Shown piece by piece: positions 4,510-37,725 of a stretch of 64,000 bases of DNA. Position 1 is the first letter of the stretch. Each line of letters opens with the position of its first letter. The stretch is taken from contig CP120456.1 in the NCBI GenBank assembly GCA_034226945.1, forward strand, positions 992,001 through 1,056,000, read 5' to 3'. Source of the DNA: Picochlorum sp. SENEW3. Lineage: Eukaryota. Position numbers and translations under genes: made by a program. A model generated the notes under the pieces. That model made no database searches, was not told the origin of the DNA, and saw nothing but the letters and a program-made list of their open reading frames with translations.

Positions 4510-4513
4510 GTGA

Positions 4514-10190: not shown

Positions 10191-11336
10191 TTAGTCACGA
10201 AGTTGGAAGCCAAAGTCTCCATATGACTCAATGGAAACATCTGTTTGAGGATAGTACATGCCCCCATTCTTCCTAGCCTCTCCTTCTCTTTCTTCTTCTA
10301 CTTTCGTGTATTCAATTAGATTTTCTTCTGGGATCTCGCCTTTTACCCTTGCACCGGCATACAGGAATAGAGTCGTTTCGGGATGCTTCATTGTGAAATG
10401 ATAATCTTCTTGAACAAGAAAATCTAAGATATCAGACTTCTGTTCCATCTGTGAATCATAAAACTGATGATTGTGTGTCAGGATTAAGTATGCGATGGCG
10501 CCTCCAAGATTTTGCTTCCACTCCCAGGAAAAATACCTCTCAATATGAGTCTGTATCAGTTCACTGTGTATCGCCTCCGATGGATCTGCTTTTATCATTG
10601 TAGGGATATGTGGGTATTTAAAATTTTGACGAATTTGTTCTGGTAGCTGCAAATTCACTGCCTGTGCTTTGGCCCACAATTTCTTGGGGTATTGATTTCT
10701 ATGAGGTCCTACATAATCCATATTCACAAACAGGCAAGAGCCACATCTGTTCGCTATTTTCCTGAGAAATCTATCTATATATGCCACGTGGTGCAAAGCA
10801 GCAAAATTTAAAATGAGATCCCAATCGCCTTGAGGGAGAGGGTCTTGGCTATTTGCATCATGCAAATAGTACCTGATAGGTAAATTACCCTTTCTTGCTT
10901 CTTCTTCAGCCTCACTGAGGAGCTCAGCACTGATATCAATCCCTGTAGCTTCATCAATCACCCTATGTAAGAATAAATCTCGCTCTACCCAACCATTTCC
11001 GCAGTTTATAATCAGAGCATGATGAAATGGCCCTCGATTGCCAGACAACAAACTCTCCCACCATACAACAGACTCATTGCCAGTAGACATTCTATTGTTG
11101 TATTTCCTGACATGCTCGTAATCATTCCAATAAATACCGTGGTAATAAACGTTTTCATCGATTTCTGTCTTCAAAATATCAACAGGTGATAGAATATCTT
11201 TCCCTGGTGAGTTCAATCCCATTTGCAGGATTGTCAACCCGACGATGCTTGCAATTGTTAGGTTCCTCCTTGATCCCAAAAGATTTCTTAACGCGTTTTC
11301 ACGCCTAGTTCTCCCATTCCAAATAAAATATGACAT
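10191..11336 (-). CDS. Class I SAM-dependent methyltransferase with N-terminal membrane anchor
   Basis: Motif I ALIINCGNG, acidic GIDIS, DLILNFAALHHV. Hydrophobic segment LTIASIVGLTIL. Intact, intronless and AT-rich. Confidence 0.82.
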   Translation of the reverse strand: MSYFIWNGRTRRENALRNLLGSRRNLTIASIVGLTILQMGLNSPGKDILSPVDILKTEIDENVYYHGIYWNDYEHVRKYNNRMSTGNESVVWWESLLSGNRGPFHHALIINCGNGWVERDLFLHRVIDEATGIDISAELLSEAEEEARKGNLPIRYYLHDANSQDPLPQGDWDLILNFAALHHVAYIDRFLRKIANRCGSCLFVNMDYVGPHRNQYPKKLWAKAQAVNLQLPEQIRQNFKYPHIPTMIKADPSEAIHSELIQTHIERYFSWEWKQNLGGAIAYLILTHNHQFYDSQMEQKSDILDFLVQEDYHFTMKHPETTLFLYAGARVKGEIPEENLIEYTKVEEEREGEARKNGGMYYPQTDVSIESYGDFGFQLRD

Positions 11337-11375
11337 GTTGCAGCCAGTCTAGAACTCGGTTATTCGTGCACCTGT

Positions 11376-11472
11376 TCTTCGTAAAGAGGGTTCGCCCTCT
11401 TTACGAAGATATTGAGCTTTTGGTCCTACTATAGATCGTCGACGATCTCACTATAGATTCCTCTCTATAGTG
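11376..11472. other. Cluster of three palindromes or hairpins upstream of the methyltransferase
   Basis: Perfect 15-bp stem with TTCG loop at 11376-11409; 16-bp palindrome AGATCGTCGACGATCT at 11433-11448; CACTATAG-n8-CTATAGTG at 11449-11472. Confidence 0.9.
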
Positions 11473-11632
11473 GAGGTATGGAAGAGGCCTTAAACTAGGC
11501 CCCGTCGAATCGCACCTTGAAACTCTTCGTATCCCCTAGTACCATCTGGGGATTGGTTCGCAGTTCAGCGAAACAATAGCAGGTGATAAATTACGCCGCG
11601 TCGATTGTAAAAATAGAACACTTATGTATAAT

Positions 11633-11963
11633 TATATTTTTTTTTTAATAGGGATTATTACACAGTCGAAAAATATGACGAATTTCCTCCAAATCATACA
11701 AGCCCCACAGGAGGAAATCCCTAAATAAAATGTTGAGAAATTTATCAAGGGATAAAAAACCTCCTGACCTGTACCTTGTCCATTGGACATACTTCTCTGT
11801 AGTGTTTTGTTTGAGCCAGTGTAGCATAGTGAATGAAACAGATTTCCTCGACCGTCTGTATGACGACTGCTCCAGGTTGTGAATTTTTACTCTTGGTACC
11901 ACTAAACCGTACAGGAGCAGTAGGACCGTCATACTTCCAGCAAATCTGACTTTAGTCTCTCTT
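11633..11963 (-). repeat. ~330-bp dispersed repeat, copy 1
   Basis: Direct copy of 32188-32519, about 92% identical by eye. A-rich end on the minus strand. Confidence 0.95.
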
Positions 11964-12343
11964 CAATGCATCAGTCACACCCTTGTCAGGGACAGACTAG
12001 TTACTCCCAATCTCGTCGTTTTCCCTCCTCGTTGTTGCATACTTGTTGCAGCTGGTCCTGACCCGCGAGTTGTGTTCACAGAATGGTGTTGGTCATTCTT
12101 GGGCTACTCGGCGTTTGTTCCGGCGTCTTGTAAGCAATGGTTCTGTAAAATTAAAGCATACCTGTCAAGGTTATCAGAGTGTGGCATGCTCCAACCTTGT
12201 CGGGCGTGTTTCCCGCGTGGGTTGTATCACTCGAGCGTTAACAACGCACGGGTCGCTCAGACCCACACGAGGCCACAGGGGAGGTCCAAAAGACCTTGCA
12301 GAAATTGTACCAAAGGTTTTTTTAATTATTTATTATATACATA

Positions 12344-14037
12344 CTAGTTTGACCCGTTTGGCAAATGCCAAACTCCATGGCCCAAGGCCATGGGTCTTTT
12401 GCAGGCATCGCTTCGCTCGCCTGTCAGGTCGGTCGCCCGAAGGGCTCCCTCTGTCGCTGCGCGGCTGTGTCGGTTAGATGGAACGTTAACGTTTATACAT
12501 AGACATGATGACGGTGTGCCGCCGAAGATCATAAAAGAAGGCTGGTATCGCTTCGCTCTCCAGCCCAATCGCAGGCCTGGCGGCCTTGCAATAACAAATA
12601 GGCCTCGCTCCGCTCGGCCAACTCAATGTAACCAGTGTCACACATAACCAGAGACATGCCAGGCTCCCTGGCATTTGGGCAGCTGGAAAAACCTGGCATC
12701 GCCCTCTTCCAGCCAGTTCGCAGGCCTCACGCTCTCGAACATACATCAAAATAAAGCAAACAGGATACAGGCCTCGCGTCGCTCGCCAAAACGGATAAAG
12801 ACCCCGTCCGTTCGCTGTAAAGGACTAAGACTGCAGTATATTGAATGGAGAAACAAATAAAGGAGGGACATGTTCCAGAGTGTGGCAGACAAAGCTGGTG
12901 ACGATGTCTTCCCTCTCAGTGTAAGAAGGAAGTTGTGTCCTCCGGCCTCGTCAGGATCCCTTAAACCGGGGCCTCACTGCGTTCGGCACGGGCGGGATCC
13001 TTCCTCACCCATCGGCCACCTGGATGTTGCTGTCGAGTGCCTGTGGAGGGCGTTCGCAAGCACACAGTTGCAAACTGGTAAGGAATCCTTGTTCCAAGTT
13101 CCTGGCATGACCAGGCACCATCCCAGCGCGTCCGAGGTGGGTTTGGTAATACTGCATGACCATGCAGACAGTGTCTTCGAGGAAAACAGCTGACATTGCT
13201 TTGCTCGCGAACCACTGGCATGGAAGGACACAAACATTGCTGCAGTATGAGTGAAAAAAAAATGAATGGCATCGCTGCGCCCGCCATCACTATCGCTCGC
13301 CTGAAGGCATTGCAATCAAATATGTGGAGAATATATATAGCTCGCTGTGCTCGGCCAAGAGAATTGTAGTTTCTGCCATCAGCCATGGAAAAATGGAAGG
13401 ATCAGCATGAAGTAAGGAACTGCCTAATGGTTGGTAGCAGAATGTGTATATGCAATACATACTGATAAGGCTCGCTGCGCTCGCCCACAAAAACCATTAT
13501 AATACTTCCTCAGCCATGCACCTTTGGAGGATGCTGTCAACTTCACTGCCTCCTATCCCGTCGGAGATCGATGCTTGATTAAGTAAGTTGACCCTTCGAA
13601 ATTCCACTGTCTCATCGCATTCCGGTGGAAAGACCCGTGCACACAACGGGATGTTGACATCGTATTTGAAGAGAACCGCTAGCATTTCTTTGCTCGCCAG
13701 CCAAACCGATGCCATGGAATAACACAAACATGGCCTGCTCCCATGCATAGAAAAACTAAAATGGCATCGCTGCGCTCGCCATAACTATCGCTAACCTGAA
13801 GGTATCGCGATCAAATAGATATAGAACTATAGGCCTTGCTGCGCTCGGCCAAAAGCATCATCGCCTCTGGCATTCACCCATGGGTAGAATGAAGGAGCAA
13901 AGATGGAATTCAGGAGCAGCATAAAGAAAAAAGGGCGGATCTGTTGTAGACCGATGCCTGGTGCTTGCTGGCAGAATGTATCTATATGCGATACATGCAT
14001 AATAAGGCTCGTATTCTGTCGATGTTTATATGTATGA
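12344..14037 (-). mobile_element. Probable non-autonomous Helitron-like element; 3' end supported, 5' end tentative
   Basis: Minus strand reads hairpin GTTTGGCA-TT-TGCCAAAC, 8 nt, then CTAG|T at 12344. Internal CGCT(G/T)CGCTCG array. Candidate A|TC start at 14037. Confidence 0.55.
13195..14012. repeat. Diverged direct duplication, about 13195-13475 vs 13680-14012
   Basis: Shared blocks ATGGCATCGCTGCGC.CGCCAT.ACTATCGCT..CCTGAAGG, GCTCGGCCAA, GGTAGCAGAATGT-like and TAAGGCTCG in the same order. Confidence 0.75.
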
Positions 14038-15430
14038 TATTACATCAACGCCCCCGGGGTTTACTTTAGAAAGTCGACCACTCGAAATTCAACCCTGTAA
14101 TCCCATATTGGGGGAATGATGCACCCAGGCACCCAATGTCTGATCAATCCTACCCAGGCCATCGAATACGTCCACTTTGCAACTATAATTTTGAAATCCC
14201 AGTCTACCGCGTTCTTCAAGATGATCACGACTTCAAACCCCCGGGTATATGTCTCACATGACCCCAGCCTCTGTACATTATCCAGGACTTTATAGGCAGG
14301 CTGCAACACCTAACCTGTCCTAAAGATTCATTCCAATTACGCCACTTGAGCGATGGCGCACTCTCTCGGGGACATAGTACCAATTCGGTGGATCTATTCG
14401 TTGTCCATACCACATATGTACAGGGCCGCTGCGTTGTTTCTCCATCCTGTGGTCCAAGTTGTCGAATCCGTCTCCTATTCCCGCGCAGTATTGTGTAACA
14501 TGCACCCTTGACAGGTACATGCCATTTATCACTGTTTTACGTCGTGTTGTGCACCCCAGAGATGAAGGATAAAGGGAGGCAAAATCGCTCGAGATGGATT
14601 TTACCAGCTGCTTCTCAGAGGCCTTTGCTATACAGAACGATCCTCTGAATCAGGTATCCTGCTGACAGTATCGTAGTCGTGGGTTCACCTCGTCATGAGA
14701 ATGACTTCAAAAGATGGAAGATGCGTCACATGGCTCCAACCGAACTCCCTAATCCACACTGTGCGTCTTTTTTCACCGGCAAGTTGCACTGGTCCAACAT
14801 CTTGCTGCAGGCAGGAGTCGCCAAGGGGACGTGAGCGATGGCACGTCAGTTCCCTCATCGCAATCATACCGATCACATGATCACATACGGAGACATTGGC
14901 AGTGTCCCGTTTGCAGGGCACGGCCCGGTGTCCCTTTTGGGAAGAAATGTGCGGAATTTGTTGTCGTCACTTCACCGGAGAGGCGTCTTGTCCCAGGGCA
15001 ACAGCGGTCAAAATGCCCATTTTGCGACGAAACATCCTTTCACATTGGAGTTTGCCGTCGTAAGGACTGCAGGAAGTCAAGCATGGAGACAGAAGGGACC
15101 GTGGAACAACGCTCGAAATCGACACTCTCGCTCGGTCAGCAGGCCCCGCCAATGGGTGCCGTTACACCGATGTTGTGGCTGGGCCGAAATTTGCCGAAAT
15201 TTTCTCGCTGGATCAGGCCCTAAAGAAGCCCGAACATGGCAGAGAATGGTGTCTGTCAAAAAATAGAAGGTTTGTTGGGCAAGAGAGCACGCGAGGGGGC
15301 TCTCAGGCGCGGACCCACGGCGTCAAAGTGGGCAAATTCGGCGAATTCGCCATGTTTGACGCAAAATTGCACCGTGTTCCCGTGCGCGTTTGCATCCTTT
15401 ATAGGCACCAAAAGTTATTATTTTATGTGT

Positions 15431-15476
15431 AGATTTCGTTTCCGAAAATCGGCCGAAGTTTTTTTTTATAGTAGTG
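15431..15476 (-). repeat. Possible orphan CACTA terminus (CACTACTATAAAAAAAAA)
   Basis: CACTA followed by an A-run resembles EnSpm TIRs. No partner found in the window. Confidence 0.3.
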
Positions 15477-15827
15477 TAGGGATATTGTGAAAATTCACGG
15501 TTGGGAGAAACTCTCGTCACAGACGGATTCTCGGACGAATGGGGCACGGTGGCAGTGAACACGAGTGTTCCCATCACCAATCGAGGATGGAGGCGGCATT
15601 TTTGGGCTCATGTGGCGTCACCCCGCGAGCGATATTCTCCGCGATATTCTCCATAACACTTAGATATGTTAAATACTATACGATTGTGCCAACGGAGCGT
15701 TGATAATTGCTGGCCGTGAAAAGTCGTCGAGCGAGACGACTGGGAACCCTTTTCCTTGGCAGCCCAAATGGCCATTAATATCGCAGATGTCCGGTCGTGT
15801 CCATTGTTGGATAGGGCCATTATTAAA

Positions 15828-18800
15828 TTACATACTCTCCACCTTTCTCAGATATCCTGACGAGAAAATAACGTATTTTTTAATCTTATCGTCTGCATTC
15901 TCGAAGTCTATGACCCTGAATCCTTGCCCGGTGACATCATCAGGCTGCAAGCACTTTAAGTTGGGTTCATTGTGTGTGACGCCAGTCCTCTGTGAAAGAT
16001 GTGGGTGCCTCTCCACATGTATCATCTCATCAACGATCAAGAAAATTTCATCCGTCTCATTTTGGTACTGTAAGGATACAGAATCAGCAGTGAGTGATTA
16101 ATTGACGGGCCATGCCATTCCAGTTACCCAACGCACCTCCAGTTTGATAATCTCCTGCAACACTCCTATCTTGTTACCATAGAAAACAACTCTATCTTCA
16201 GATTTCAGCCCATCCTTGATTGAGAAACGTGTCTGATTGATTTGGAAGGCTTTATATCTTGTAACATCACCGCGAATCCCTTCCAGAATTTTCCTCTGCC
16301 TACCAGAATACTTCATCCTTTCAGCAACCGACATTCTGTCCCCAAATGTCCACAGGCAGAAATGCCTGGACTGGCACTGCAATTTTTGATACTCTTCCCA
16401 CTTTGACTCAATGTATCTTTTGATCAAGTGCATCTCAGATGTCGAAATATTCGCCATCTGCACCCTGGAAATGGGTTCGTGGAGAAGGATGTCATCCTGG
16501 AATTTTGGGTCTAGACTGGCCTGTGCTTCTTCCTCCGAGAGTAGACCGATTAGGGTCTCCATTGAATAATCGCGCATGATTCGTTCAAATATTGTAGCTG
16601 TAGGGTGTGCAGGATTCAGGTTCATGCCCTTAAGGTCTCCCAAGTAGGACTCCAGGGGATAGCTGTGGTATCCTGAAATGGGTCCAAAGTCCTTGACCTG
16701 CCTGCTCAAATGACCGATATTGTGAACACATAAAGGGAGACAGTGGTGAGGTAAGCGATTCTCAAGTGCAACAAGTGCCCGCCATATATCCCGGCCCAAA
16801 GCATCAACCCTTGTGAGATCAACTACAGGAGCAAGCAATCTGTTCAGTAGTGAGAGAAGCTTGTCTAATGCTTTCACCAGATCTCTGTCCACTCCACCGA
16901 TGTAAAGGACATAGCTAAATAGTCCAGATAGTAGGAATTGCTTCATCGGAGCTGACTCTCCCGTATTCTTGACGCCAATATCCTTTTGGCGAGTGACTGG
17001 GCCTTCAATTTCATTGTCTGCTTGCTGTGTTTTCCTGAACAGTCTAGAAGGCTGTATGCAGAGTCTCGATGGTGTCGAGACATTTTTCAACACCTTTATG
17101 GCTGTAGTATTATTTAATGGGCAGTCAGTATCTGTATTGAAAGTCCACGGTGGACGGGACCTCGGAAGCTTGTCTTTGCCTTTCGAATCTTGGTGCACGC
17201 TTAGGTGAAGGTGTGATTCCATGTTCAGGAAGCCTTTCTTGAATAGAAGCTTCCTCGTCGCAGGATTTTCTTTCTCTCCTTCCACGAGTTTTTCCAGATG
17301 TGATCCGAAATTTTTCATCGTGTGCATGAAGCATAGCAGATGACACCTGGACGAGTCCCAGTATGGCAAACGCTCAAACACTGACTCCCCAAGGACACCA
17401 GATGCTAGTCCTGGGAACTCGTTGCGAAGCGCTGGATCCATACTTCTCCGTGCCCTTATAAAATCATGATCTTTCTCTATCCACACGGGTGCGAATTCTC
17501 CACGTAAACTGTCTCCAGGTTCTAGGTTCCCTTTACTCAAGTAACACTGGGATGAGCCTGTGTTCTCCTCCCGCTGCACTGTGCACTTAATACATGCATC
17601 CTTTGCCCCCGCTTCATCGAGCATGGATGTTTTCTTCGTTGCTCGACCATCTTGCATCGTACAGATCAAGGCAGCTCTGTACTTTTCTCCATTAAGGACG
17701 AAACCATTCATCAAGTGATGGAACTCGTCAACAATTTGTCCAAGATACCTTTGCCACCCTTCTGCGTTGGGCTCCGTTGGCCCATCAATAAGTTGCAGCA
17801 GCTGAAGATTTTTCGAATCCATTCTTATATCAGCGGGGAGATTGAAACAAACTAGGACCACCGCACCAGCGGTGTAGGATGCCTGAGACACCCTGAAGCC
17901 ATCAACAAACAAGCCAAACAGTAAAGGAGTGTAGCCATCGCTTGTAGTAAAAAAGGAGGGATATTTTCTCCTCATATCCTTCACAAATTTAGCCGACCAT
18001 ATATCTGTGCATCTTGTGCTGGATTGTCGACCATTGCGAGCGGATAATTGCACCTCAGTCCTAAATTGACCGTTCTGCAGCAACCTTCTGATGGCATCCT
18101 TGACAGAACAGTATCGTATGCAGATGTTCCTTGCTAGACGACAAGAGCCATAATCGCATGTGTCATGCGGTTCCTTCGTGGCTCTGGAACTGTCATGATG
18201 CTCCCGGCACGTAAAACGTTTCTGGTACCCTGGGTGCAGAATTCTCAACATCTTCCTCATCTTTCTGTGGTCAGGGACCACAGGCACGTTAAATAATTGA
18301 TTCCACGACTGCATTCTCTCAAGTTCTTCATTGATATGTGACATCGGAGTGGTGTTTTTTATCCACGCACCCAGCGCTTGGATGAAATACTTTCTTGGCA
18401 CTGGATGCTGCACGAGGTCAGCAAGATCCTCCTTCACTCGTACCAACGGAGAGATACTGTCAGTTTGGTCTATTCTGTCATCTTCTCTAATAATCGTAGA
18501 TGAAGGGACTTGACTTCCGTTCATGTGCTCCTCTCGAGTCGTATCCGTGGCACCACTGGGACAGGGAGAGGCTCCGTACTCATCCATATCAAAGTCATAA
18601 CCTCCATCTTCGTCAGTAGCCACCACAGGAACTTCATCCCCATCTAGCCCTCTCAGTCTCTTCCTGTTTTTTAATACCATTTGGGCATGCAAAATCTCTT
18701 CTCTTGTCAACTGTCTATACTTGTAAACCCACGTAGGGTTGGTTGGTTCAACATACTCAACCTGAGATGATGCATGATTCACCCTCTGCCTCTTCAAATG

Positions 18801-19001
18801 CGCTCGATACGTAGAGTATTGTATCAGACAAGAAGAATCACATTTCGAATGTCCACAGTTGCAGTGTGTGTACTTGGTTTCCCTGTAATACCCCCCCTTG
18901 TACTCGATTACTCCTTTCACATTCCTGAGAATCTTGCCTCTCCGACAAGGATAGATTTCATCGCTCTTCAAAGCATCTTCATTATTGTTATTGTCAGACA
19001 T
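15828..19001 (-). CDS. CACTA/EnSpm-type transposase (Transposase_21/DUF4218-like) with a 69-bp intron at 16068-16136
   Basis: Motifs LFVDGF, NLPADIR, GPTEP, QDGRA, CIKC, CFMHTMKN, HNIGHL..QVKDFGP...SYPLE. A phase-0 GTGCGT..TTACAG intron joins ORF 16098..19001 in frame to 15828..16040. Confidence 0.88.
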
Positions 19002-19005
19002 GTTA

Positions 19006-19626
19006 GGCCGTCGAGAATTAATCTTCCTGTACGCGTCGTCCGCCCGCTCGTTTCATTTTCCACTGACCCCTAGATTTAAGAATCGGCCATAACTCCCCAT
19101 CCGTGGCGAATTAGATCGAACGGATGCCACCACACGATAGAGCTCATCAAGAGGAGTCGATTGGCGGTCTCGTTGGGGCGAAACTCCATCATGAGTCATC
19201 GTGACCCTCCAAAGACCACTTGGACCGGCGATGTCAAGGCGGGCTGATTCCAAATTTTAAGAATTCGGTGAACGCGTCATTTGCTCTCCCACCATCATCG
19301 TAAGTCATCTAATACTGCTACTTTATAGTTTTGAAGCTATATAGTGCATGTACAGCCCTGGCAGCTTGCCTATTCAGCATCAGTTCCATTGGAGGTCAGG
19401 GACACAGCTGGAAACGGAGCCTAGTGGCACTTTCCGAGTGTTTCAAGTCGAGGAAGGATCTTAAGCATCATATGATCTCATTGGAGACTTATATCTGAAC
19501 TTTCAGGGTCCCAAGAGGCATTTAACGCAATTATTAGATTTTGTGGTTTTCTTAAAAATCCCCGCCCGCCCGCGCGTTTCTACAGAATTTGCTCGACGCG
19601 TACAGGAAGATTAATTCTCGACGGCC
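19006..19626. mobile_element. PIF/Harbinger (Tourist)-like MITE
   Basis: Perfect 33-bp inverted repeats GGCCGTCGAGAATTAATCTTCCTGTACGCGTCG at 19006-19038 and 19594-19626, with TTA on both sides. Confidence 0.8.
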
Positions 19627-19825
19627 TTATATATAATTATTAAAAATAAAGTATCGGACCGGTTTTGACGCAGACGTGTCTATTCCCTTGAATGAGATTC
19701 AAACGTGGTTTGAAATAGATCTGTTGTTACGGGAGATGCACGCGCATGCAGAATTGATGACACTGACATTCCTGCGTGCTTATTAACATATATCAACTCA
19801 TATATGTGTAATAATAGTCTTAAAC

Positions 19826-21625: not shown

Positions 21626-21830
21626 TTTAAACTGCGCATATCTTTGATGAATTGATCAATACTCAATTAGTCTACTCGAGTGATGTAAAAAGACTCCCCA
21701 GTATGGTAACTGTCGCGGCATCATATTTGAATCCACCTGTTTCAAACCTGACGCATGGAGGGGTCGTTGTTATTTATCGGTCAACGCAGGGCACTTACTG
21801 CGTTCCAAAAGTATTAAAATAAACTTTTGT

Positions 21831-23131
21831 TTGACGCAATATATCTATCAACTTATAGGGCAAATGCCATCTGACAGTGGAGGCACTGGCGTAGTGCCAA
21901 CACGCAGCACATCTCCGGGTTGCACAGAGAGAGACATCCCGATAGGAGACGAGAATATCGATCCATCACAAAGCAAGGACAATATTGATTTAGTCCAGAG
22001 AAAAATTATCGAGGATATCGTCGACAGATTCTGTCCTAGAGTTGTCCAGGACTCTGCTAAGAGGGAAGGAGAGTGGGGCATGTTTGCCACGCCAGAAGCC
22101 ACGAATGAGGCTTCAAAAGATGCATATGAAAAAATCCCTTACATCAAGATGACCATAGAGATTGTGACGCGGGCTGAACAAGAGCCATGGCAAACCGCGC
22201 GGTTTGGCCAAAGTACGATCCCATTGAAGGACAGAAAGCAGCAAAAAGGTACTCTGCATTTCAAACAAAATAGCAATACATATATGTGCGTAGTTCCCCT
22301 GGTATCAACAAGCATCTTGTCTTCAGGTATATATATTTATCGAATAGTAGAATCAGGAGAGCAGTAAAAAGAAAAGCAGACTGGAATAGCACTGTTGCTT
22401 TAAAATCCCTCCATGACTCTGCGCTGGCTTGGAGATCTACTTGGGCAGAGCCAGAGAATCAAGATGCATGGCTTGCGACAGTTGCTGCATGGGATAATGA
22501 CCCAAAAATAATTCACTCCAGAGCCGCAAGAGAGCATCTTGCAAGTATATTCAGCGACGCGAATGACCAAGCAGAGCAAGAGAAGCTGGGAGCCCCAAAT
22601 CTTGACTCTATTGAGGACTGTGTCAGGACAGTCAAGGAATGGAACACCATCCATCCAGGAGGCAATACCTGGGCAGATGTGCATAACAATTTACTGTTTT
22701 CTTTGATGATAAATTATGTCCCTCGCATTAGGAGCACCAGGACATTTCTAGACCTTGCTAATCATGAACAAGCACAAACAGCGTGGCCAGACGTTCACGA
22801 GGGGGTGAATTCTGGACCGAGGTCTCACCATAGTATGACAAAAACTCTGCGTAATAAATGGGGTGTGATCGGTGGTTGGCTTCTAGGCGCGAAGACAAAA
22901 GGCAAGCAGTTCAACTTTGATCTATCATCACAGATAAAAGCCCTGCAATTGATGAAAGAGGGCAAGATACCTTGGCCCACAAAATCAGTGAAACGTCCCA
23001 CGTGCTCTAATGCCTTACATCGATTATTAGATGACAGAATACAGGAAAAAGATCAGTCGTTGAAGCAGACTATGCCACTGCACGAGACAAATGAGCCTGG
23101 AATATCTTCTCAGGGGCACATGGCTCTTTGA
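21831..23131 (+). CDS. Hypothetical protein in two overlapping ORFs
   Basis: 178-aa and 281-aa ORFs with protein-like composition. No motif recognised. Confidence 0.45.
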
Positions 23132-24193
23132 AAAGGTCGAGAGGTTCTAGAAACTCACTATCATCATCTGAGCACCACAAATGGTTATGACGGCAGCAGA
23201 CCAGCCATTTACACGCGTGAACAGGGACCGACGATGGAAACCTTGCTTGGCTCATGATGATCATGAGGAGTCCTGGTCGATCAAAGTGCAAGACGCTACC
23301 GACTCTGCCCATATTAATAATTAAATGGTGAAGTATGTAAGAAATTTAATAATAATTGAAAAGGAATCATTCGGGCTATGACATTATGGCGCTGGAGATA
23401 GGTGAGTTCTTTCCCGTCTCGTCCAGTGGTAGTTCGTTGAAACGTTTACCCCATTCCTTGTTGTGCAGGAAACCTTCCCCGTCGAACTATTCCATCTAGG
23501 TAAGTTATATCATCATTTTACTGCAGACAATGGATAAACTGGCATGCGGATAGCCGCTGCGTGGTGACTCAATAGTTGACGGTTGGAACGGTGATACTCG
23601 TAGAGGCATAGACGACTGATAGCAACGTCTCACCGCCTTCTTGAATATTCTAGTCTTATTTACTGTAACAGGAATGCATAGCAATTGGTGTACGCGATTG
23701 GATGCGCGAGCATCCAAATCGCGCGAGCACCGAAGAAATAGTCACAAAGAGCGCTCAGCTCCAATAGGGGTATCAATGAGCGATAGTCCCGTCTTCATGT
23801 CACAACACAACCCTTAAACAAGGTACTGGTCGCGACTGGCGCAGGGATCACAACGGGCGGCTGAGCCGATAGTGGTCACAACGAGCCCTGTTGGCCCAAA
23901 GAGTGGTCACACTTTGGCACCGCGACCCTGAAAATCCGAGGATCTCAAACCGTGACCATTTCTTACCAAAAGCGCACGAAAGTGAATCTAAAATTTCATA
24001 GAGTAAAAGTATGTATTCAGCGAGATGATGCAGCCCGCGATTATTGGCGAATTTGGTGCACGGTTCGAAGAGGTTTAATAAGGAACCAATCCCCAGATGG
24101 TACTAGGGATCGTGATATCACGTCCTTTTATCATTTCTCCATGGATCTTTGGGATGAGCAGGCTACCCAGACAAGTGGGACCTTCTTTGCAAT

Positions 24194-25510
24194 ATGTATC
24201 TGGGGCCACCGTCAATGGAAGACAAGGCGGCGGCCCAGGCACTGCTAGTGTATGTGAGACAACACCACGGTTATGAATTCTTGTACTGTTCTTCAAAGGT
24301 GCAGTATTTTTGGAATGAGGAAAGATTCCAGGACAATACTGATGACGCGCACACATGTAAAATGTGCTTGGATCATGGCGACGAGATTTCCAGAATCTAT
24401 AACGTGTCTTCGAAAATGTTTTCTGGGCACAGGAAGATCAAAAACATATGTGGCATACTCAGAGGTCTCACCATTGATAGAGATGCCTGTAGGAAGATGA
24501 ATCAGAACACCAAGCTTTTAGGTTTCGATGACGGCGTTCTCGAACTTGACACTGGGACATTCAGGCCCCAAAAGTACAGTGATTATATCTCCATGAGCGT
24601 GGGATACAACTACCCCACAACCAGAGACCCCGCAGCCGAAGCCAAAGTGATGGAATTCTTCAGACAAGTGCATCCAGATCCCACCGTACGCAAGTTCGTT
24701 TTATACCGATTGGCGTCATGCTTGGAGGGTTTTAACACGGAGGAAAAGGGGCCAATGTGGACGGGTCCTTCAGGTGCCAATGGGAAGAGCAAGTTGGCAG
24801 AACTGATGTTGTCAGTGATGGGAGATTACGGAGGAACCTTGGAAAGCTCGCAGTTGACCACTGCCAGATCATCAGGTGCAGCCAACAGTCAATTAGCGTC
24901 GGTGATGTTTTGTAGGTTCCTTTTGGTGGAGGAGCCAGATACCATGTGCAAAGCATGGAACTGGGAAAAGTTCAAGGAGATTACTGGTCGAGCTGAGGTG
25001 CAAGTGAGAGAATTGTACGAGCGATCCATTAGTATGAGGCCACACTTCACCCCCATCTTAATCTTCAATTCTGTGCCAGATACGTGTAAAAAAGTTGACC
25101 AAGCCGTTGAGAGACGTTTGGAGGTGATCAGCTTTGAAAGTGAGTTTGTCAATGAGCCCAAGTTGCCACATCAGTTTCCAATTGACATGCATCTCTCTGA
25201 TGCGTTTGCCTGTTGGAAAATACACTTGTTCAATATCCTGTACCACGACTTCTATAAGAAACATGTACTCACAAATCGTCCCATCCAGCTACCAGCTCGG
25301 TGCAAAGAGGCAGCGGACTCAATCTTGGACAATGGGCAGGTGGTACGCAAATGGTTTGAAGATAGAATTGTCCAGGACCCAGGAGGTTTTTTCACGCTGA
25401 ATGCCGCTAAACACGACTTTTATAGTTGGATAGATGCTAGTGGGTATCGCTGCGATGGTATCCCTCTCAGGGATCTGAAGAAGCAATTGTGTGGACTGAT
25501 GAACAGGGAA
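24194..25510 (+). pseudogene. D5-like SF3 primase-helicase (NCLDV/Polinton-like), C-terminus cut at the LINE junction
   Basis: D5_N-like LLGFDDGVLELDTGTFRP, Walker A GPSGANGKS, Walker B FLLVEE, sensor ILIFN, Arg finger AVERRL. Confidence 0.88.
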
Positions 25511-28500
25511 GATCCGTCGTCGAATATCATCCAAGCTATAACTGCACGCCACCACGATGAGACCCCAAGTGTCCGAGGGGTATGGAAGATGTGATGGAGG
25601 CTGATTGGTCCAAATGGAGTGCAACACCTGGGTGACTGGAATGCCAAGACCTGTGGCAAGGTGCTGATATAGGCTACAAGCAATGCTGCATTCCGTGGTA
25701 TAATAATGGTTTCTACCTGGTGTGACATTTGAGTGGCCACAAACACATGCTTTTTCTTTCTGCGTCTTCTGAGCATTCACCTGAGTATCCATGAGGATCT
25801 CCCAGAAAGGGAGTTTATAGATAGAGGGGAGCTGAAGCTGTTGCAAAGGCTTGAAGATTCTGTGGAGTGGTCTAGGCACACTCGCTATGATCTCAAGCCA
25901 GCCCCGGAGGCGTCTGCGTCGGTGCTGTCTATCTACTCGTGTGAACAAGGTAGTGCCTTGCTTCACTGTATATGTATCTAACGTCATAGTGCATTTAGGG
26001 TGTATCTGCCATCCTAGTTCGCCTTGAAGGCCATTCATGACATATGTTCCTGTCTCCTGATTCTGGAGAATGGCCCTCTGAAGATCTGCGAGATGGTATG
26101 CATATATGCTAGATGTAAATAATAGGGTAGGTGGCTCGTACCGTAAATAAGCAGGCTCGTGATGGTAAACTATGGGCTGTAGCTCAAAATTGGGAACAGC
26201 CGGGATGCCTCTCTGTAGAAGGTGGATGGGCAAACAGGCAGGTATGCCTGTATGCTGACCATCCTGCATCTTCAAAAAGATATTCCACGCTAATTGAACC
26301 CATGATTTCTCGGCGCCAGCTGTGAATAAAAGAATATACCACTTCAAATCACGCGCAGATAGGTGGGCCTGAAGGGGTAAACAGCCAAGGCCTCCTTCTT
26401 TTGGATTGGCTGCAAACGCTGTGCTTCTCCAAAAGTTGCTCTGGAGGAGTTGGCGTATGGCTGTCCAGACTTCCTTTACTTGTGCTTGAGTGGGCTTCAC
26501 AACTTCTGCATAGTATAAATCTTTAAAAAGCAGGTATGTCGAGATAATTCTAAATTTGCTAAATGGTGATAAATGTCTTGCTTTGACTTTGCGAATGGCT
26601 GTTTTCAGTTTGGCGACTCGAGTGTCCCAGTCTATGGCAAAGGCGCCTGTATGTGCCAGGACCTGGAAACCTAGGATTGTTGCTTTACTCACCACCTGGA
26701 GCCCTGCGATTGTCCGGGGGTGTTCTGCCGGCTGTCCAATGGGGAGGAGCAATGTTTTGGTCATATTCAGGACCTGTCCAGTGCCTCGTCCAAATCGATG
26801 CATGATGTTGATGAATCGTGAGACATCCGCGTAACTACTTAATGGTACCGTGTTGTCATCTGCATATTGTAATGTAGGAATATAGAGCTCATGAGGGCAT
26901 TGCTGTAGTCCTCCGTGAAGATAGTGTTGCATCTTGTGTGTCATAGGCAGTCTGATGCCAATTCTGTGTGTTTCTAGCCATCTGGCGAGGATATGGCCGA
27001 TCAAAAGGTACAAATATGGAGAGACAGGATCGCCCTGGCGTACGCCTGCTTCAAATTTTCTGCGTTTGGAAAATGCTCCATTATAGTAGACCTGACTATA
27101 CGTATTCTCCAGCAAGACTGCGATCCAGTGTTGGAGTGAGGGAGGCATCTGCAAGCATTGGCAAATTTTCATGAGAAATCGTCGATCAACCTTATCATAT
27201 ACTTTGGAAAAATCGTAAACCGCTAGGAAGGCTGATTTCTGCTCAAGTTGCAAGTGCTGTGGAATGAGTTGGAGAGGCCACACTTTGTCCATAGGGCTCC
27301 GTCCTGGCAGAAAGGCTGTCTGTGTGGGGCTGATCAACTGCTGCAACGGTCCTTTCAATTTCGCAAGAAGTATCTGAGTAAAAATTCGATAATCTGTGTT
27401 GAGTAGGGTGATGGGTCGATAATTGATCGCCTGACATCTGGGTCCTTTTTTGTAAACAGGGATGATGAGACCCTCCAGAAAGGACTGAGGCATGTCGTGC
27501 AAGAGACCAGTGAAGATTTTGGCCAATATCGGGGCCAAGGAATCCTTCAAAAGCCGATACGTGACAATATTAATGCCATCTAGGCCTGCTGCCGTGGGCT
27601 TCATTCGTTTGATGGCATTCCTGACATCTTGTTCTGTGATCACGTGGGGGAAATCCTGTGCTGGAAAAACTGTTCGATCTGCTGGCGTGAGGGAGTGTAG
27701 GATTTCCTCCTGAATCTCTTCTGATAATATGTCCTGTTGTGATATGTCGGCATAGTGGTCAATGAGGATATTTGCACAGGCCGTCGAGTCCCCTTGTAAC
27801 TGCTGGTGGCGATCTTGAAGTCTGTCATCGGTGGTGGAATATCTGTATGGGGTCAACGGCATGGCATGACTTTCTGTGTCTGCATCCCATTGTTGTTCAG
27901 CATTCGGCTGGTGATCTACATGAGCGTAGCGATGTTGGAGCTGATGACTGGTGAAAGCGCTCATGGCTGCTTCTTGCTCTCGAAGTTGTCTGGCAGCCTC
28001 CAGTTCTTTACCTCGAAATTTCCGTTGTGCACTGTACGACAGGCGCGCAATGGTGCCTTTGATGTCAAGCCATGTCTGATAACTGATCGTATCTTGTCTG
28101 GCAAGGGGGCGAAAGCGCTGAGAACATTCATCACGGAAATTCTGCAATATGCTGGCATCGTTTCTAAATTGAGTTGGGATGCGTCTTCTGTAGGCCTTCT
28201 GCTTCGGGGTGGTTATCGGAGTCTGGCGCCTGAGCGACACGATAACCGCCGCGTGATCTGTGTGGACCACCGAAGATTCAATTGACTGCACTGTGATGGA
28301 TTTCAGAAGTGGTTCCAGTTGCTTTGAACCATAGAATCTGTCTAATCTGCTCTTGGTGACGCAACGTGGGTCTTGCTGTGTCACGTGCTCGTGTGTGTAG
28401 GCAGCTCGGTCCCTGAGGGTATTGCTGCCGAAGTCGCATATATCTGTGCTTTCAAACGCAGTGGCCCATAATTTGGCTGTGCGTCTGTATGGATGTGCTC

Positions 28501-29023
28501 TGTGGAGGTTGGTCGTTGTATCACGTTGATGTGAGACAAAATTATAGTCACCTCCCCAGAGAACCGGTTGGCTGTTCTCCAGTTGTTGTTTCAGGATGCG
28601 AATGCATGGCTGTATATCCGAATCTCGTGCTGAGCCTGTATTAGGAAAATATACCGAGCTAATACGCACGTCTAATCCAGGTCCTTTGAAACGGCCTGTC
28701 AGTACCCTGCTTGGGAGATCATGCATGATGGGGCTAAATGCATAAGACTGCTCTAGTAGTCGTCTCCTGACTAAAATGGCCACTCCTTGCCGAGGTCTTG
28801 CCTTATTGGTTGTCTGGCTTAATGCACTGCCCCAGTAACATTGCCAAGGGTGGAGGGATTGTTCAATCTGACGTATGGGATGATCATCTGTGAGCAGATG
28901 GGTCTCCTGCAATAGTACGATATCAATATGTAATCTTTCCAGTTCCACGTGTAAAGCTAATGCTTTGTCAACATTGAGACCATTAACGTTGAGGCTATAG
29001 ATCCTGAGTGTCTGTGGCGTCAT
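25319..29023 (-). CDS. LINE ORF2 (APE + RT + zinc motif); last ~60 aa are read-through into antisense D5 sequence
   Basis: Motifs NVNGL, LQETH, GDYN, RLDRFY, TDH, YRPITLLNTDY, GVRQGDPVSP, QYADD, CVCGH. Confidence 0.93.
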   Translation of the reverse strand: MTPQTLRIYSLNVNGLNVDKALALHVELERLHIDIVLLQETHLLTDDHPIRQIEQSLHPWQCYWGSALSQTTNKARPRQGVAILVRRRLLEQSYAFSPIMHDLPSRVLTGRFKGPGLDVRISSVYFPNTGSARDSDIQPCIRILKQQLENSQPVLWGGDYNFVSHQRDTTTNLHRAHPYRRTAKLWATAFESTDICDFGSNTLRDRAAYTHEHVTQQDPRCVTKSRLDRFYGSKQLEPLLKSITVQSIESSVVHTDHAAVIVSLRRQTPITTPKQKAYRRRIPTQFRNDASILQNFRDECSQRFRPLARQDTISYQTWLDIKGTIARLSYSAQRKFRGKELEAARQLREQEAAMSAFTSHQLQHRYAHVDHQPNAEQQWDADTESHAMPLTPYRYSTTDDRLQDRHQQLQGDSTACANILIDHYADISQQDILSEEIQEEILHSLTPADRTVFPAQDFPHVITEQDVRNAIKRMKPTAAGLDGINIVTYRLLKDSLAPILAKIFTGLLHDMPQSFLEGLIIPVYKKGPRCQAINYRPITLLNTDYRIFTQILLAKLKGPLQQLISPTQTAFLPGRSPMDKVWPLQLIPQHLQLEQKSAFLAVYDFSKVYDKVDRRFLMKICQCLQMPPSLQHWIAVLLENTYSQVYYNGAFSKRRKFEAGVRQGDPVSPYLYLLIGHILARWLETHRIGIRLPMTHKMQHYLHGGLQQCPHELYIPTLQYADDNTVPLSSYADVSRFINIMHRFGRGTGQVLNMTKTLLLPIGQPAEHPRTIAGLQVVSKATILGFQVLAHTGAFAIDWDTRVAKLKTAIRKVKARHLSPFSKFRIISTYLLFKDLYYAEVVKPTQAQVKEVWTAIRQLLQSNFWRSTAFAANPKEGGLGCLPLQAHLSARDLKWYILLFTAGAEKSWVQLAWNIFLKMQDGQHTGIPACLPIHLLQRGIPAVPNFELQPIVYHHEPAYLRYEPPTLLFTSSIYAYHLADLQRAILQNQETGTYVMNGLQGELGWQIHPKCTMTLDTYTVKQGTTLFTRVDRQHRRRRLRGWLEIIASVPRPLHRIFKPLQQLQLPSIYKLPFWEILMDTQVNAQKTQKEKACVCGHSNVTPGRNHYYTTECSIACSLYQHLATGLGIPVTQVLHSIWTNQPPSHLPYPSDTWGLIVVACSYSLDDIRRRIFPVHQSTQLLLQIPERDTIAAIPTSIYPTIKVVFSGIQREKTSWVLDNSIFKPFAYHLPIVQD

Positions 29024-30085
29024 CTTGATGGGCTATATGTTGATGTATGTCTGGGGTCAAAGAGCATCCATGATCTCAGGATTTTGCTCCAGGCAGGCTG
29101 CAATTTCTTGGAGCTCCTGTGCATGGATAGCATCATCCTGAAGCAGCGACGGTTCTGGTGGCTGTATAGGGATGGGTGCTGTCTGCGGCGGAGATTTTCT
29201 TTCTATCGCTGGGCTGGGTCTCCGTCTGTCCATACCTCGTTGTGAGGTGTTAGAAAAGAGCACAGTGCGAGAACGCTTCGTAGGAGTACTCGGGTACATC
29301 GCCTGGTTGGTCATTAGAGCCTGCCGATAGTTCTTTGAACCATTCTTGAACTCTGCATACTCTGCTTTGGCGACGGCAAGTGCCTGGAGTCCAGACGTAT
29401 GCGGTTGTTGTCTGTCCAAGGCTGTTCTGCAGAAGAGATGAATGTTCAGAGTCCGGTCACCAAACATAAATCTGATGGGCTCAATTTTCTTGAGATTCTC
29501 CACCTCCAATGTGGCAATCCATGTGTTGGTAGGCAACTCAATCTCACCACATTTTTCAGTGCTTTGAATGATTTGGGTGGGCTGGAAACCATTAGCTTGA
29601 AGGGCTGCTTTAGCGTAGTCTGGGTCCAGGATTGGGGTGGAATCTGTTTCGTCATTGATATCCATAAAATACTCCTGTTTACGTGGACGATTAGGCCACA
29701 CAAGTTCAACCACATGCTCATGATCATTGATTTCCAGGGATATCGTATCATCTGGTGCAAGAGCATCAACAAGTTCGACCACCTCTTCAAATGTGGCAAA
29801 CGTACATTGAAGGATGGCTCGATAGTTGACCTTTTTGCCCCCAATGAAGGCCGTGGAGTAAAACCAGCGGGATTCTCTGGGCATGCCAACAATTTTTCCT
29901 TTCGGCAAATGCTCGGTAAGGAACTTCACGCACCTGATCTTGAACTGGGACATCTGTTCCGTCACATAGGCGTTCGCATCGTGGTCATAATTCCAATATT
30001 TCTGGGGATTGGCAATCTCCATGCGAAGGTGGAACCTGAACACGCGACTGGTCTCAGTTGGAGCAGGGATGGCTGGGTTTGACAT
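25510..30085 (-). mobile_element. L1/Tx1-like LINE-B, 3'-truncated
   Basis: Uninterrupted ORF1 and ORF2. Similarity to the other two LINE ORF2s stops at DDIRRR near 25510. Confidence 0.9.
29057..30085 (-). CDS. LINE ORF1 protein
   Basis: 342-aa ORF ending 33 nt upstream of ORF2. Confidence 0.78.
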   Translation of the reverse strand: MSNPAIPAPTETSRVFRFHLRMEIANPQKYWNYDHDANAYVTEQMSQFKIRCVKFLTEHLPKGKIVGMPRESRWFYSTAFIGGKKVNYRAILQCTFATFEEVVELVDALAPDDTISLEINDHEHVVELVWPNRPRKQEYFMDINDETDSTPILDPDYAKAALQANGFQPTQIIQSTEKCGEIELPTNTWIATLEVENLKKIEPIRFMFGDRTLNIHLFCRTALDRQQPHTSGLQALAVAKAEYAEFKNGSKNYRQALMTNQAMYPSTPTKRSRTVLFSNTSQRGMDRRRPSPAIERKSPPQTAPIPIQPPEPSLLQDDAIHAQELQEIAACLEQNPEIMDAL

Positions 30086-30209
30086 TCTCGATGTTTCTGG
30101 TATCGGAACGATGTGATAAACGCAAACAGAGCGATGTTTGATAGACTTTGTGTCTTAAAGCTTTTTATAGATTTTCTTACATGGTCATTTAGTCTTGGAT
30201 TTGGTCCCA

Positions 30210-30480
30210 TCCATCCTACCCCTGGAGTTGGTTGCATGGCTCAAACTCAGCTCCACCTTCTGATGTCTCATTCTCCTGCATTTCATCATCTGAGTCATGT
30301 AGTGATATCTCACTATCATCCTCATCCGTTTCCATTACCTCAGAAAGGTCGTCAGAAGGCTCGACATCTGGATTGAAGTCTGAGTTGACCGTGCCTTTGA
30401 AAGGATCAAATCACATCATGTCCAATCCCTCCACAGGCCCTGGAGCCATGTTATCAACCTGGAAGCCTCAATATTCAGGT
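30210..30480 (-). pseudogene. Decayed acidic C-terminal tail of a pogo-like transposase paralog
   Basis: DEDDSEISLHDSDDEMQENETSEGGAEFEPCN aligns with EDEIEYSIHDTDDESQNEEPSEGDHAYDPSN of 40218..42164. Contains in-frame TGA stops. Confidence 0.55.
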
Positions 30481-30625
30481 TGAGTGCCTTCAATTCATCT
30501 GAGCAGGGCTGTAGCCCCTTCCTTCAATCTTGGGTCTGAAACTTTGGACAAAATCTCAACTTGTGCGCATTTTCGGCGATTGAATTTCTTTTTGATTCGC
30601 AGATAATTAGGATCAGTACAGTATA

Positions 30626-30732
30626 TGGAATTGCTGGAGCGAAGGTTTGGGGTGCATTCAATTTTTTTGACTTGGCCGGATTTGGTCCACTTCAAAGGGG
30701 GCCGTCCCTACGGTTATCACGGCCAACCTGTG
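30626..30732. repeat. ~107-bp repeat, inverted copy of 59333-59439
   Basis: Shared TGGAATTGC.GGAGC.AAGGTTTGGGGTGCATTCAAT...GGCCGTCCCTACGGTTATCACGGCC with few mismatches. Confidence 0.92.
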
Positions 30733-30940
30733 TGAAGGATCCCGATCCCGCTAGCGGGAACGCCGCCGAGTTTCGGGGTTTTGGCCATCGGGCGCCACCC
30801 TCAAATATGGCGGTGATCCCGCTTGTAAGCGGGAATGCTGCAGCAAGTGGTACTTTGGAAATTCTATGGAATTCGTGAGATCTCGTGAACCTTCACCCTT
30901 ACGGGAAAATTCAGAAGAATGGGCATGTATTCTCTACCTC

Positions 30941-32062
30941 TTATACATTCGTGGTTTCGTTGTTGAAGTCCTCGTATCGTTTTTGAATGTATGTATATAG
31001 CTCTTTATTCCGGTCATACTGATGAAGTAAGCTGGGAAAATGACGAGATCCCTCTGGAATCACCAGACCACTCCTCAGAATCGCATATGGAGAGCCCAAA
31101 CCCAGTGTAAATATAGGAGATTCCCAGTTGTTGGCCACATGATAATCCAACGTGGTATTTCTAAGAATCCCAAGCCAAATAATGAAGTTAAAGACTCCTT
31201 GATCAGCCCCGTGAGTACTAGTGCACTCAGATCCCAATGTATTTATGGTATCATCCACAATCGTGAGAAAATCTACCAGTGCCAGAGCTTTGCCTGCAAA
31301 CGCTCCAGAGCAAATCACATGACAATGGTCACACCTTTCAAGTGCCTGTAGAGCTTCCGAACCAAAGCAAACCGATATCCACCTGTGATTCCAACGAGCT
31401 CGATCTCTTGAGTCTTCGCAGAACGTAACCTCGCCACCTTTGCTTCCTTCCTTGGAGAAGAGCAAATCTGACTCTGTTAGGTAGCGTTTACTTAAAGGAT
31501 GACTGAAGAATGGGGTTTGAATGACTGCATCGCGTGCATCTGTGATTAGTATTCTATCATCAGACAAGATGCTTCCTTCTGCAATTGCCCTTGCTAAGAA
31601 ATCCTGATAGACCTTTAATCTATGTAAATGAGGAGTGCTTCTGGCAGGCACTTTAACAAATATATATCTCACTGTCCGACAGCGATCTTTGACTGTTTCA
31701 TTCTTGCTTCCAAATATCACTATATTAGTACACGGAGAAAAGAGAGACCAAGAATTCATAAGTGGTCTGGCACGTTCCTCCATATTGTAGGCAAAGGTCA
31801 ACATGTGTGTCTTTTGAGAAATTAAATGAGCAAATTTATCTCTGTGTATGTCTGACACTATACCGGTATATATGTATATGGGATATGAACATATCGATAG
31901 TGACACTAGGGCCGCCATGGTAACTAATATAACTTGTCCCCTCCATGGCCACGTGGATGCACCGGTGCAGGTACTTGAGAGCCGTGCACGGCTCGTTTCA
32001 TGTGGAAAGCTTGTGAACATTGCCACCCTAATTACACTTTCAACAAACGGGCATCTCCACAT
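30941..32062 (-). CDS. Putative GT-A-fold glycosyltransferase, type II membrane protein
   Basis: TM segment VILVTMAALVSLSICSYPIYIY. Motifs ILITDARD, ICSGAFAG, ADQGVFN, LLHQYDR. Intact and intronless. The first ATG is near 32020. Confidence 0.7.
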   Translation of the reverse strand: MWRCPFVESVIRVAMFTSFPHETSRARLSSTCTGASTWPWRGQVILVTMAALVSLSICSYPIYIYTGIVSDIHRDKFAHLISQKTHMLTFAYNMEERARPLMNSWSLFSPCTNIVIFGSKNETVKDRCRTVRYIFVKVPARSTPHLHRLKVYQDFLARAIAEGSILSDDRILITDARDAVIQTPFFSHPLSKRYLTESDLLFSKEGSKGGEVTFCEDSRDRARWNHRWISVCFGSEALQALERCDHCHVICSGAFAGKALALVDFLTIVDDTINTLGSECTSTHGADQGVFNFIIWLGILRNTTLDYHVANNWESPIFTLGLGSPYAILRSGLVIPEGSRHFPSLLHQYDRNKELYTYIQKRYEDFNNETTNV

Positions 32063-32187
32063 TCCAAACTCCTGTCAAATTAAAAAAAAAATTACCGTAG
32101 CGACCAAAAAAAATACGGACCTTGTCCGGTTGGAATCTCTATTTACGGGCCCTTTATGGGGAAAGAACCATGACCTAGGTACCTAGG

Positions 32188-32519
32188 TATTTTATTTTTT
32201 TATAGGGGATTATTACACAGTCGAGAAATATGACGAATATCTTCCAAATCATACAAGCCCCACAGGAGGAAATCCCTAAATAAAATGTTGAGGAATTTAT
32301 AAAGGGATACAAAACCTCCTGACCTGTACATTGTCCATTGGACATACTCCTCTGTAGTGTTTTGTTTGAGCGAGTGTAGCATAGTGAATGAAACAGATTT
32401 CCTCGACCTTCCATATGACGACTGCTCCAGGTTGTGAAATTTTTACCATGGGTACCACTAAACCGTACAGGAGCAGTTGGGCCGTCATACTTCAGGCAAA
32501 TCTGACTATAGTCTCTCTT
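32188..32519 (-). repeat. ~330-bp dispersed repeat, copy 2
   Basis: Direct copy of 11633-11963. Abuts the palindrome ACCTAGGTACCTAGGT at 32173-32188. Confidence 0.95.
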
Positions 32520-32562
32520 GGAATGCTGATGTTTGTCCTGGAAGTGGCAAGCGCTTCCTTGT

Positions 32563-37680: not shown

Positions 37681-37725
37681 CGTCGCAGGTTGCCTCTCGA
37701 TGAGGAGTATGAGCTTCTCGTTATG

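Follow-up and report, generated by a model that had tools for sequence, protein, structure and literature searches.

A 330-bp repeat lying upstream of a methyltransferase gene and of a glycosyltransferase (GT)-like gene in the green alga Picochlorum sp. SENEW3 forms the 3′ terminus of long interspersed nuclear elements (LINEs) of an L1-like family that has been active recently. Both genes belong to a 64,000-nucleotide stretch (hereafter the window; C4:992001-1056000 of a 13.85-Mb genome in 14 contigs). The original prediction had suggested that the repeat, with a palindromic spacer, may mark an exchangeable expression or insertion site for surface-glycan modifier genes; such a cassette system does not exist. 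We propose instead, with good confidence, that a full LINE and a non-autonomous partner inserted late and independently beside the two genes, with a bias in position and within an island rich in glycan-related genes.

The repeat pair itself was correctly described: the two copies, predicted to be about 92% identical, align at 92.8% over 332 bp, and the ATGs of the methyltransferase and GT genes lie 301 and 126 bp beyond the repeat matches. A genome-wide search returned 38 matches, 20 of them near full length. All 20 near-full copies stop at one common point in an A tail, about 13 bases past a TGTAA motif, a green-algal poly(A) signal. Their 3′ flanks are unrelated, the exceptions being a tail-to-tail pair and two copies that share one site within another LINE family. 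On the upstream side, four kinds of sequence were found. Eleven of the 20 copies run on into the LINE of the window (Table 1) and are cut at differing 5′ points; a 92-94% variant accounts for one full match and one 3′-incomplete match; an 80% family with its own ORF2 (second open reading frame, ORF) has four copies; and a 704-bp non-coding element has four, including the copy before the methyltransferase. Since upstream identity ends at differing points (518, 570, 989 and 1500+ bp), the copies are 5′-truncated.

The window LINE has an ORF1, without Pfam match, upstream of ORF2. In ORF2, the endonuclease (Exo_endo_phos, 35496-36368) is N-terminal to the reverse transcriptase (RT; RVT_1, 34124-34789), and a CxC...H...C motif is present in the last ORF2 piece, as in the related D family. 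Searched against the PDB, the D-family ORF2 places human L1 ORF2p (E 3e-30) ahead of R2 (E 7e-15), which is a ranking and not a tree. The window LINE and four other copies of 5.5-5.6 kb are 99.8-99.9% identical. Because their differences are mostly scattered single-base gaps, and because short-read contigs of one sample depart from the window LINE at eight single-base places, the broken frames are probably assembly errors in an intact family. The two short-read contig sets come from one sample, possibly the source itself, and are not independent. Their depth climbs steeply toward the LINE 3′ end, which fits 5′ truncation and is not a copy count.

The 704-bp element is a partner of this LINE resembling a short interspersed nuclear element (SINE). 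Its three full copies have heads that are 100% identical, and the tail is 93% identical to the LINE; a fourth copy is rearranged, with an inverted 5′ piece. A 7-bp repeat is found at the window junction of the element. In the head, ARAGORN finds 0 tRNAs and Rfam gives no real match. At 64 there is an A-box-like motif and at 103 a degenerate B-like one, both judged against the general consensus without a chance control.

Most tail matches are found in two transposon islands of about 230 kb. The first covers about 950-1186 kb of C4, with the window inside; the second was read over 600-800 kb of C6. Here, housekeeping genes yield to LINEs, long terminal repeat (LTR) elements, Helitrons, KDZ, MULE and other transposons. 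The islands, about 3% of the genome, hold 26 of the 38 tail matches and 4 of the 8 Methyltransf_24 matches. From 334 ORFs, 129 matching window transposons were set aside, and 116 island and 89 flank ORFs were scanned. By hand count, 21 island host genes could be assigned to a family or fold, and 16 of them are of glycan/methyl type, versus 5 of 65 annotated flank ORFs; anchored island ORFs without Pfam match were left out. The 16 comprise six GTs, six methyltransferases, one epimerase, one sulfotransferase and two sugar-nucleotide-type transporters. Their GC content is 39-45%, and most have an N-terminal hydrophobic segment. The density of such genes is not raised (3.7 versus 3.2 per 100 kb in the flank), nor is regional GC low (42-51% in 10-kb steps, versus 44-47%). 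The predicted resemblance to the outlier chromosomes of Mamiellales algae holds for gene content, which is rich in GTs and methyltransferases.

Outside the islands, most LINE ends of this clade are found a short way ahead of a gene start. We took all 14 LINE ends of three families there, their mirror sides and 3000 non-ORF draws from a 154-kb flank, and asked whether the first downstream feature is a same-strand ORF of at least 100 aa opening with ATG within 300 bp. This is the case for 11 of 14 LINE ends versus 34% of the random intergenic draws (p 0.0009), and for 3 of 13 mirror sides (p 0.007). An AT-rich intergenic null also gives 34-36%. A further related family, added afterwards, ends 75 bp before a Pex19 gene, which brings the count to 12/15 (p 0.0004). 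Among the four position-tested families, ORF2 identity is 30-72%; it drops to 21-26% against two other families. One site (C6:550.7 kb, a pattern match with two mismatches) was dropped, being within an antisense ORF and without A tail, and a subtelomeric family with no clear 3′ end in the stretch examined was left out. All five tandem-spacer sites face the downstream gene, and the neighbours outside the islands are of mixed function (10 of 13 scanned have Pfam matches). Within the islands, tails pile up before the same starts, at 26 and 68 bp from a GT2 gene and at 6 and 178 bp from a gene at C6:724.6 kb; they recur also in the 5′ UTR (untranslated region) of the LINE itself. An A-rich sense strand was considered as the source of the orientation bias and discarded, as no A-over-T skew is seen upstream of the ATGs (1870 A versus 1953 T, 44 genes).

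These observations are best explained by promoter-proximal, orientation-biased LINE insertion, to which selection may contribute. Both genes would already have been in place when the full LINE inserted 126 bp before the GT start. The 704-bp element would have inserted independently, 301 bp before the methyltransferase start, moved by the enzymes of the LINE. Target-primed reverse transcription is the likely mechanism. The placement of the clade just upstream of gene starts, in the orientation of the gene, is seen across this gene-dense genome and may come from insertion into open promoter or transcription-start regions, followed by selection. Since nearly all island host genes are of glycan/methyl type, any gene hit in an island is likely to be one. 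The coincidence at both genes would thus follow from LINEs settling upstream of starts and from the richness of the islands in such genes. The palindromes would take no part. We infer the order of events, the targeting and any effect on expression or virus resistance.

Several points weigh against this explanation. Clear target-site duplications are missing; by eye, repeats of 2-7 bp are present at some of 19 junctions, none at copy B. An empty site was not seen among the short-read contigs, none of which joined across the LINE; one short-read run covered the GT homologue and not the LINE, which proves nothing on the empty site. The count falls to 11/15 (p 0.002) without a doubtful C3 site of the third family, and to 8/15 (p 0.10, same null) with Pfam-supported neighbours only. 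Gene starts are the first ATGs of ORFs and not mapped transcription starts, and the null is drawn from a single 154-kb flank. At one site (C9:33.8 kb) the tail points to the end of a gene, and at two more the first ATG is 460 and 595 bp away. Of the 20 near-full copies, eight have landed within or next to another transposon in the islands, and two point to gene ends there. In addition, all three full-length 704-bp elements, one of them outside the islands, precede glycan/methyl genes and 2 of the 13 outside neighbours are GTs (p 0.01-0.06), which is more than the explanation needs.

The alternative that survives best is insertion without preference, the pattern being left by purifying selection only, as coding or antisense insertions were lost and promoter-side spacers are longer. 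We consider it possible, if doubtful. Only surviving insertions are visible, several of the outside matches are old fragments of 35-100 bp, the Pfam-supported subset is not significant, and many island copies lie in other transposons in either orientation. The null, however, is already restricted to intergenic sequence, also in its AT-rich version, and near-identical young copies show the same pattern (126, 30, 43 and 256 bp), as do the repeated hits at the same starts. Moreover, a second clade located upstream of tRNA genes (see below) shows that position-specific insertion exists in the same genome. LINE insertion biased toward gene starts can also be given a bolder form, which we regard as unlikely: the L1-like clade would actively target RNA polymerase (Pol) II starts in sense, as a Pol II counterpart of the TRE5 elements of Dictyostelium and alongside a second clade directed at tRNA genes, and land repeatedly on surface-glycan gene promoters in the two islands, so that retrotransposition switches or tunes them and yields cell-surface and virus-receptor variation outside Mamiellales.

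More improbable still is that the tail serves as a co-opted promoter. Its last bases are a TATA-like CCCTATAAAA, which directly follows the TGTAA poly(A)-signal-like motif; insertion would insulate and drive or tune the glycan gene, and be kept as it changes the cell surface. Fragments of the tail, 40-46 bp long, survive 6-33 bp ahead of GT8, GT2 and one more anchored gene, the full short elements behave as stated above (3/3), and the low-GC, foreign-looking island genes might lack native promoters. Conversely, a tail of these families comes within 500 bp of a start in 4 of the 16 island glycan/methyl genes and is missing there in the other 12, and the second LINE family shares the position without the TATA-like motif.

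We give next to no credence to an exchange or expression site for glycan-modifier cassettes marked by repeat and palindrome: both window copies and 5 of the 20 near-full copies precede such genes, but the repeat is contiguous with a LINE ORF2 and 5′-truncated at random points, spacer lengths and sequences are unrelated, palindromes differ, neighbours include a GMC oxidoreductase, PLAC8, an ABC transporter and a Myb-like protein, no site-specific recombinase is found among the window ORFs scanned, and each gene is single-copy, hence there is no silent-copy archive. Behind the 20 copies are five glycan/methyl gene starts (the GT-A gene, an epimerase at about 0.9 kb, the methyltransferase, a DXD-type GT on C9 and a GT8), five other gene starts, eight transposons and two gene ends. 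Classifying the gene downstream of each copy, as had been suggested, shows that most copies abut transposons or non-glycan genes. With tail-to-start distances of 6-460 bp there is no fixed breakpoint; together with the LINE 3′ end and the mixed neighbours, this refutes the cassette idea. The other possibility raised at the outset, a LINE 3′ UTR inserted by chance, is right as to the LINE 3′ end and less so as to chance, since the tails lie non-randomly just upstream of gene starts.

Each spacer does contain a perfect 16-bp palindrome (Table 1). The two differ in sequence and position, and the window holds four such 16-mers. A palindrome occurs in 5 of about 28 distinct tail-downstream windows, two being the discovery cases, versus 5/56 control upstream regions (p 0.28; one further A/T run was dropped, and the script used n=27). 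Without the discovery cases, 3 of about 26 remain. The real background, 14 in the 154-kb flank and 32 in 200 kb of C6, is underestimated by a first-order Markov null, which gives a mean of 0.95 per 64 kb versus the 4 seen; that null was therefore not used. Palindromes as a signal were rejected, given their unlike sequences and near-background frequency. The methyltransferase spacer shows three adjacent hairpins, one with a 14-bp perfect stem.

ORF calls confirm that both genes are on the minus strand, and as single ORFs they appear intronless. The AT-richness claimed for both is clear for the methyltransferase (GC 40.7%) and only marginal for the GT (43.1%); 89 flank ORFs average 46.7 ± 1.9%, with 0/89 at or below 42%. 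The predicted N-terminal anchors are likewise unequal, with a strong hydrophobic segment in the GT (KD19 2.08, starting at residue 44) and a weak one in the methyltransferase (KD19 1.27, residue 26), whose database gene call (P0001, 343 aa) begins downstream of the segment. The first "glycan-type enzyme" of the original prediction is a methyltransferase by its Pfam match, with a glycan as at most a putative substrate. It is single-copy in the genome, with one homologue at 82% and hundreds at 41-50%, those named being bacterial.

The predicted GT-A-like character of the second protein is borne out by an AlphaFold model (pLDDT 88.6) that matches GT-A enzymes in Foldseek, including GT6 alpha-1,3-galactosyltransferase (E 8e-11, TM about 0.5, identity 11-14%); the model thus points to a GT-A-fold, glycosyltransferase-like protein. 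The sequence has no Pfam match, its family has no Pfam model, and a Pfam scan of an 81-member alignment gave nothing beyond single weak GT matches. Its 421 relatives (E<=0.001) conserve D-x-R-D, C-x-G, DQ and HQYDR motifs. The gene is single-copy apart from one weak paralogue on C7. Its closest homologue elsewhere is at 78%, with a different N-terminus. The catalytic part is about 90% alike in the homologue P0121 and a metagenome contig, whereas the N-terminal stem and anchor (31807-32062) are wholly unlike both, a hint of fast change at the 5′ end. In several GT and methyltransferase proteins, including P0121, the anchor finishes with a run resembling I-Y-I-Y-R-E-R, as though (TA)n/(GA)n microsatellites were being translated.

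Table 1 Features of the window (positions are those of the window; SAM, S-adenosylmethionine).
Feature	Position	Strand	Evidence or remark
Second LINE family, different 3′ UTR; independent position test	496-5893	-	Pfam, sequence comparison
Class I SAM methyltransferase, 381 aa	10191-11336	-	Pfam Methyltransf_11 E 6e-11; single copy, weak N-terminal anchor
Hairpin-rich spacer with 16-bp palindrome (11433-11448)	11337-11634	-	z -4.4; not common to GT spacer
Repeat copy A: 3′ tail of LINE type, with poly(A), belonging to the SINE-like element	11635-11963	-	Sequence comparison
Head (375 bp) of the 704-bp SINE-like element	11964-12338	-	Three copies begin at the same point, to within 2 bp
Third LINE family; ORF2 frame of 1234 aa intact, family 3′ end missing where D5-like ORF begins	25508-30085	-	Pfam
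GT-A-fold glycosyltransferase-like protein, 373 aa	30941-32062	-	AlphaFold/Foldseek; N-terminal anchor, conserved D-x-R-D motif
16-bp palindrome: 8-bp palindrome written twice, at LINE poly(A) junction	32173-32188	.	Sequence
Repeat copy B: last 330 bp of LINE 3′ UTR, A tail, TGTAA at 32217-32213	32188-32519	-	Folding versus shuffles z -2.9 (better)
Full LINE, 5.6 kb	32188-37825	-	ORF1, ORF2, 3′ tail
LINE ORF2 with endonuclease, RT and C-terminal Cys/His motif; fragmented in this assembly	32670-36368	-	Pfam
LINE: AT-rich 5′ UTR and ORF1 region; the element has its 5′ end at 37825	36521-37825	-	Sequence comparison

The two genes had been called the only intact non-transposon genes of the window. 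This stands among the 28 ORFs scanned, whose Pfam matches are LINE endonuclease/RT, KDZ, CACTA-type, DDE, MULE, Ulp1, D5-like primase and methyltransferase, with the exception of the D5-primase-like ORF (24194-25594; D5_N, DUF5906). This ORF overlaps the cut end of a LINE, and a similar DUF5906 piece is found at C6:739 kb, which suggests a relic of a viral or Polinton-like element. At three places (window 417-495, C6:719.5 kb and C4:961.3 kb), the second LINE family has inserted into the AT-rich 5′ UTR of the window LINE family or next to it. A 46-bp LINE tail fragment is in frame before the GT8 ORF (C4:1111338) and is read as a hydrophobic peptide, likewise on C3. At two island gene starts, a 215-bp repeat separates the gene from LINE tails; it is probably a further small mobile element. 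Another cluster of RT matches and repeats is seen at C6:11-102 kb. The host does not belong to the Mamiellales algae with which the original prediction drew its comparison: a flank proteasome subunit is identical to a Picochlorum-labelled protein, with Chlorella and Micractinium proteins at 54-57%, and the host is therefore a trebouxiophyte.

Copies of a more distant non-LTR family, which has 23 tail matches, finish 50-110 bp in front of tRNA genes that point the same way, and are stacked in tandem. Neighbours are tRNA-Asp, -Phe, -Glu and -Asn (for example C12:878-881 kb). Among 18 loci, overlapping and stacked copies included, ARAGORN finds four such tRNAs, and four more look permuted by eye. 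In the window itself ARAGORN finds no tRNA. By analogy, this family suggests a TRE5-like, tRNA-associated element in a green alga. The permuted-looking tRNA genes have the 3′ half before the 5′ half (C12 locus 2787-2890, C5:288 kb, C5:798 kb and C3:470 kb) and were missed in place by ARAGORN and Rfam; permuted tRNA genes are described from red algae, prasinophytes and Auxenochlorella (PMC12636532).

The window elements can be compared with several known systems. Some L1-clade LINEs share their 3′ tail with a SINE. The present pair is alike in its endonuclease-RT-Cys/His ORF2, ORF1, A tail, 5′ truncations and short non-coding element with the same 3′ 330 bp, and unlike in its short or absent target-site duplications and in a short-element head without tRNA or Rfam match. 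Close in placement are TRE5/TRE3 of Dictyostelium, L1-clade non-LTR elements inserted with position and orientation specificity near genes of a compact genome; TRE5 lies 44-54 bp upstream of tRNA genes, in opposite orientation (PMC5911963). The window clade shares orientation-specific placement next to gene starts (11/14 versus 3/13 for the mirror side). The difference from TRE5 is that its neighbours are protein-coding and not Pol III genes, with starts 6-460 bp further on and the same orientation as the element; the separate tRNA-associated family of this genome is upstream of tRNA genes but also in the same orientation. Tf1 of Schizosaccharomyces pombe (PMC5371812) is an LTR element whose integrase is tethered by Sap1, whereas the window elements are non-LTR. 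If true, targeting of Pol II starts by a LINE clade would be novel: known non-LTR cases are at Pol III genes (Dictyostelium), and Pol II promoters are the target of an LTR element, Tf1. The literature we could search, with most subscription papers outside it, showed no report of a LINE clade targeting Pol II starts, and the accessible parts of PMC7175516, PMC12458973 and PMC6141220 contain nothing on this insertion pattern.

In the islands, nested L1 elements recall the centromeric Zepp/ZeppL clusters of Coccomyxa and Chlamydomonas, described in PMC9940879 as nested L1 LINEs over 50-320 kb. There, each chromosome has one cluster; here, 26 of 38 tail matches are on two of 14 contigs, mixed with other transposon classes and glycan genes. 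Glycan islands in Picochlorum are not described in the literature within reach of our search: the main text of the Picochlorum genome paper (PMC11092101) reports local repeat-rich regions without the word "glycosyltransferase", and its supplements may bear on this, while PMC6141220, in its accessible part, reports glycosyltransferases acquired by horizontal gene transfer and no outlier region. The outlier chromosome of Mamiellales (PMC5082852, PMC5498103) carries GTs, methyltransferases including FkbM, NAD epimerase, triose-phosphate-family sugar transporters, foreign-looking genes and transposons. The islands are alike in the few gene categories they hold (GT, methyltransferase, epimerase, sugar transporter). 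They differ in being two regions of about 230 kb inside 1.1-1.2 Mb contigs of a trebouxiophyte, and not a whole small low-GC chromosome, and in that transposons dominate while per-kb gene density equals that of the flank. Finding such a gene inventory beyond Mamiellales would point to glycan-gene islands as a recurrent trait of picoalgae. A link to viruses could be tested in Picochlorum, which is grown in culture for production and can be edited.

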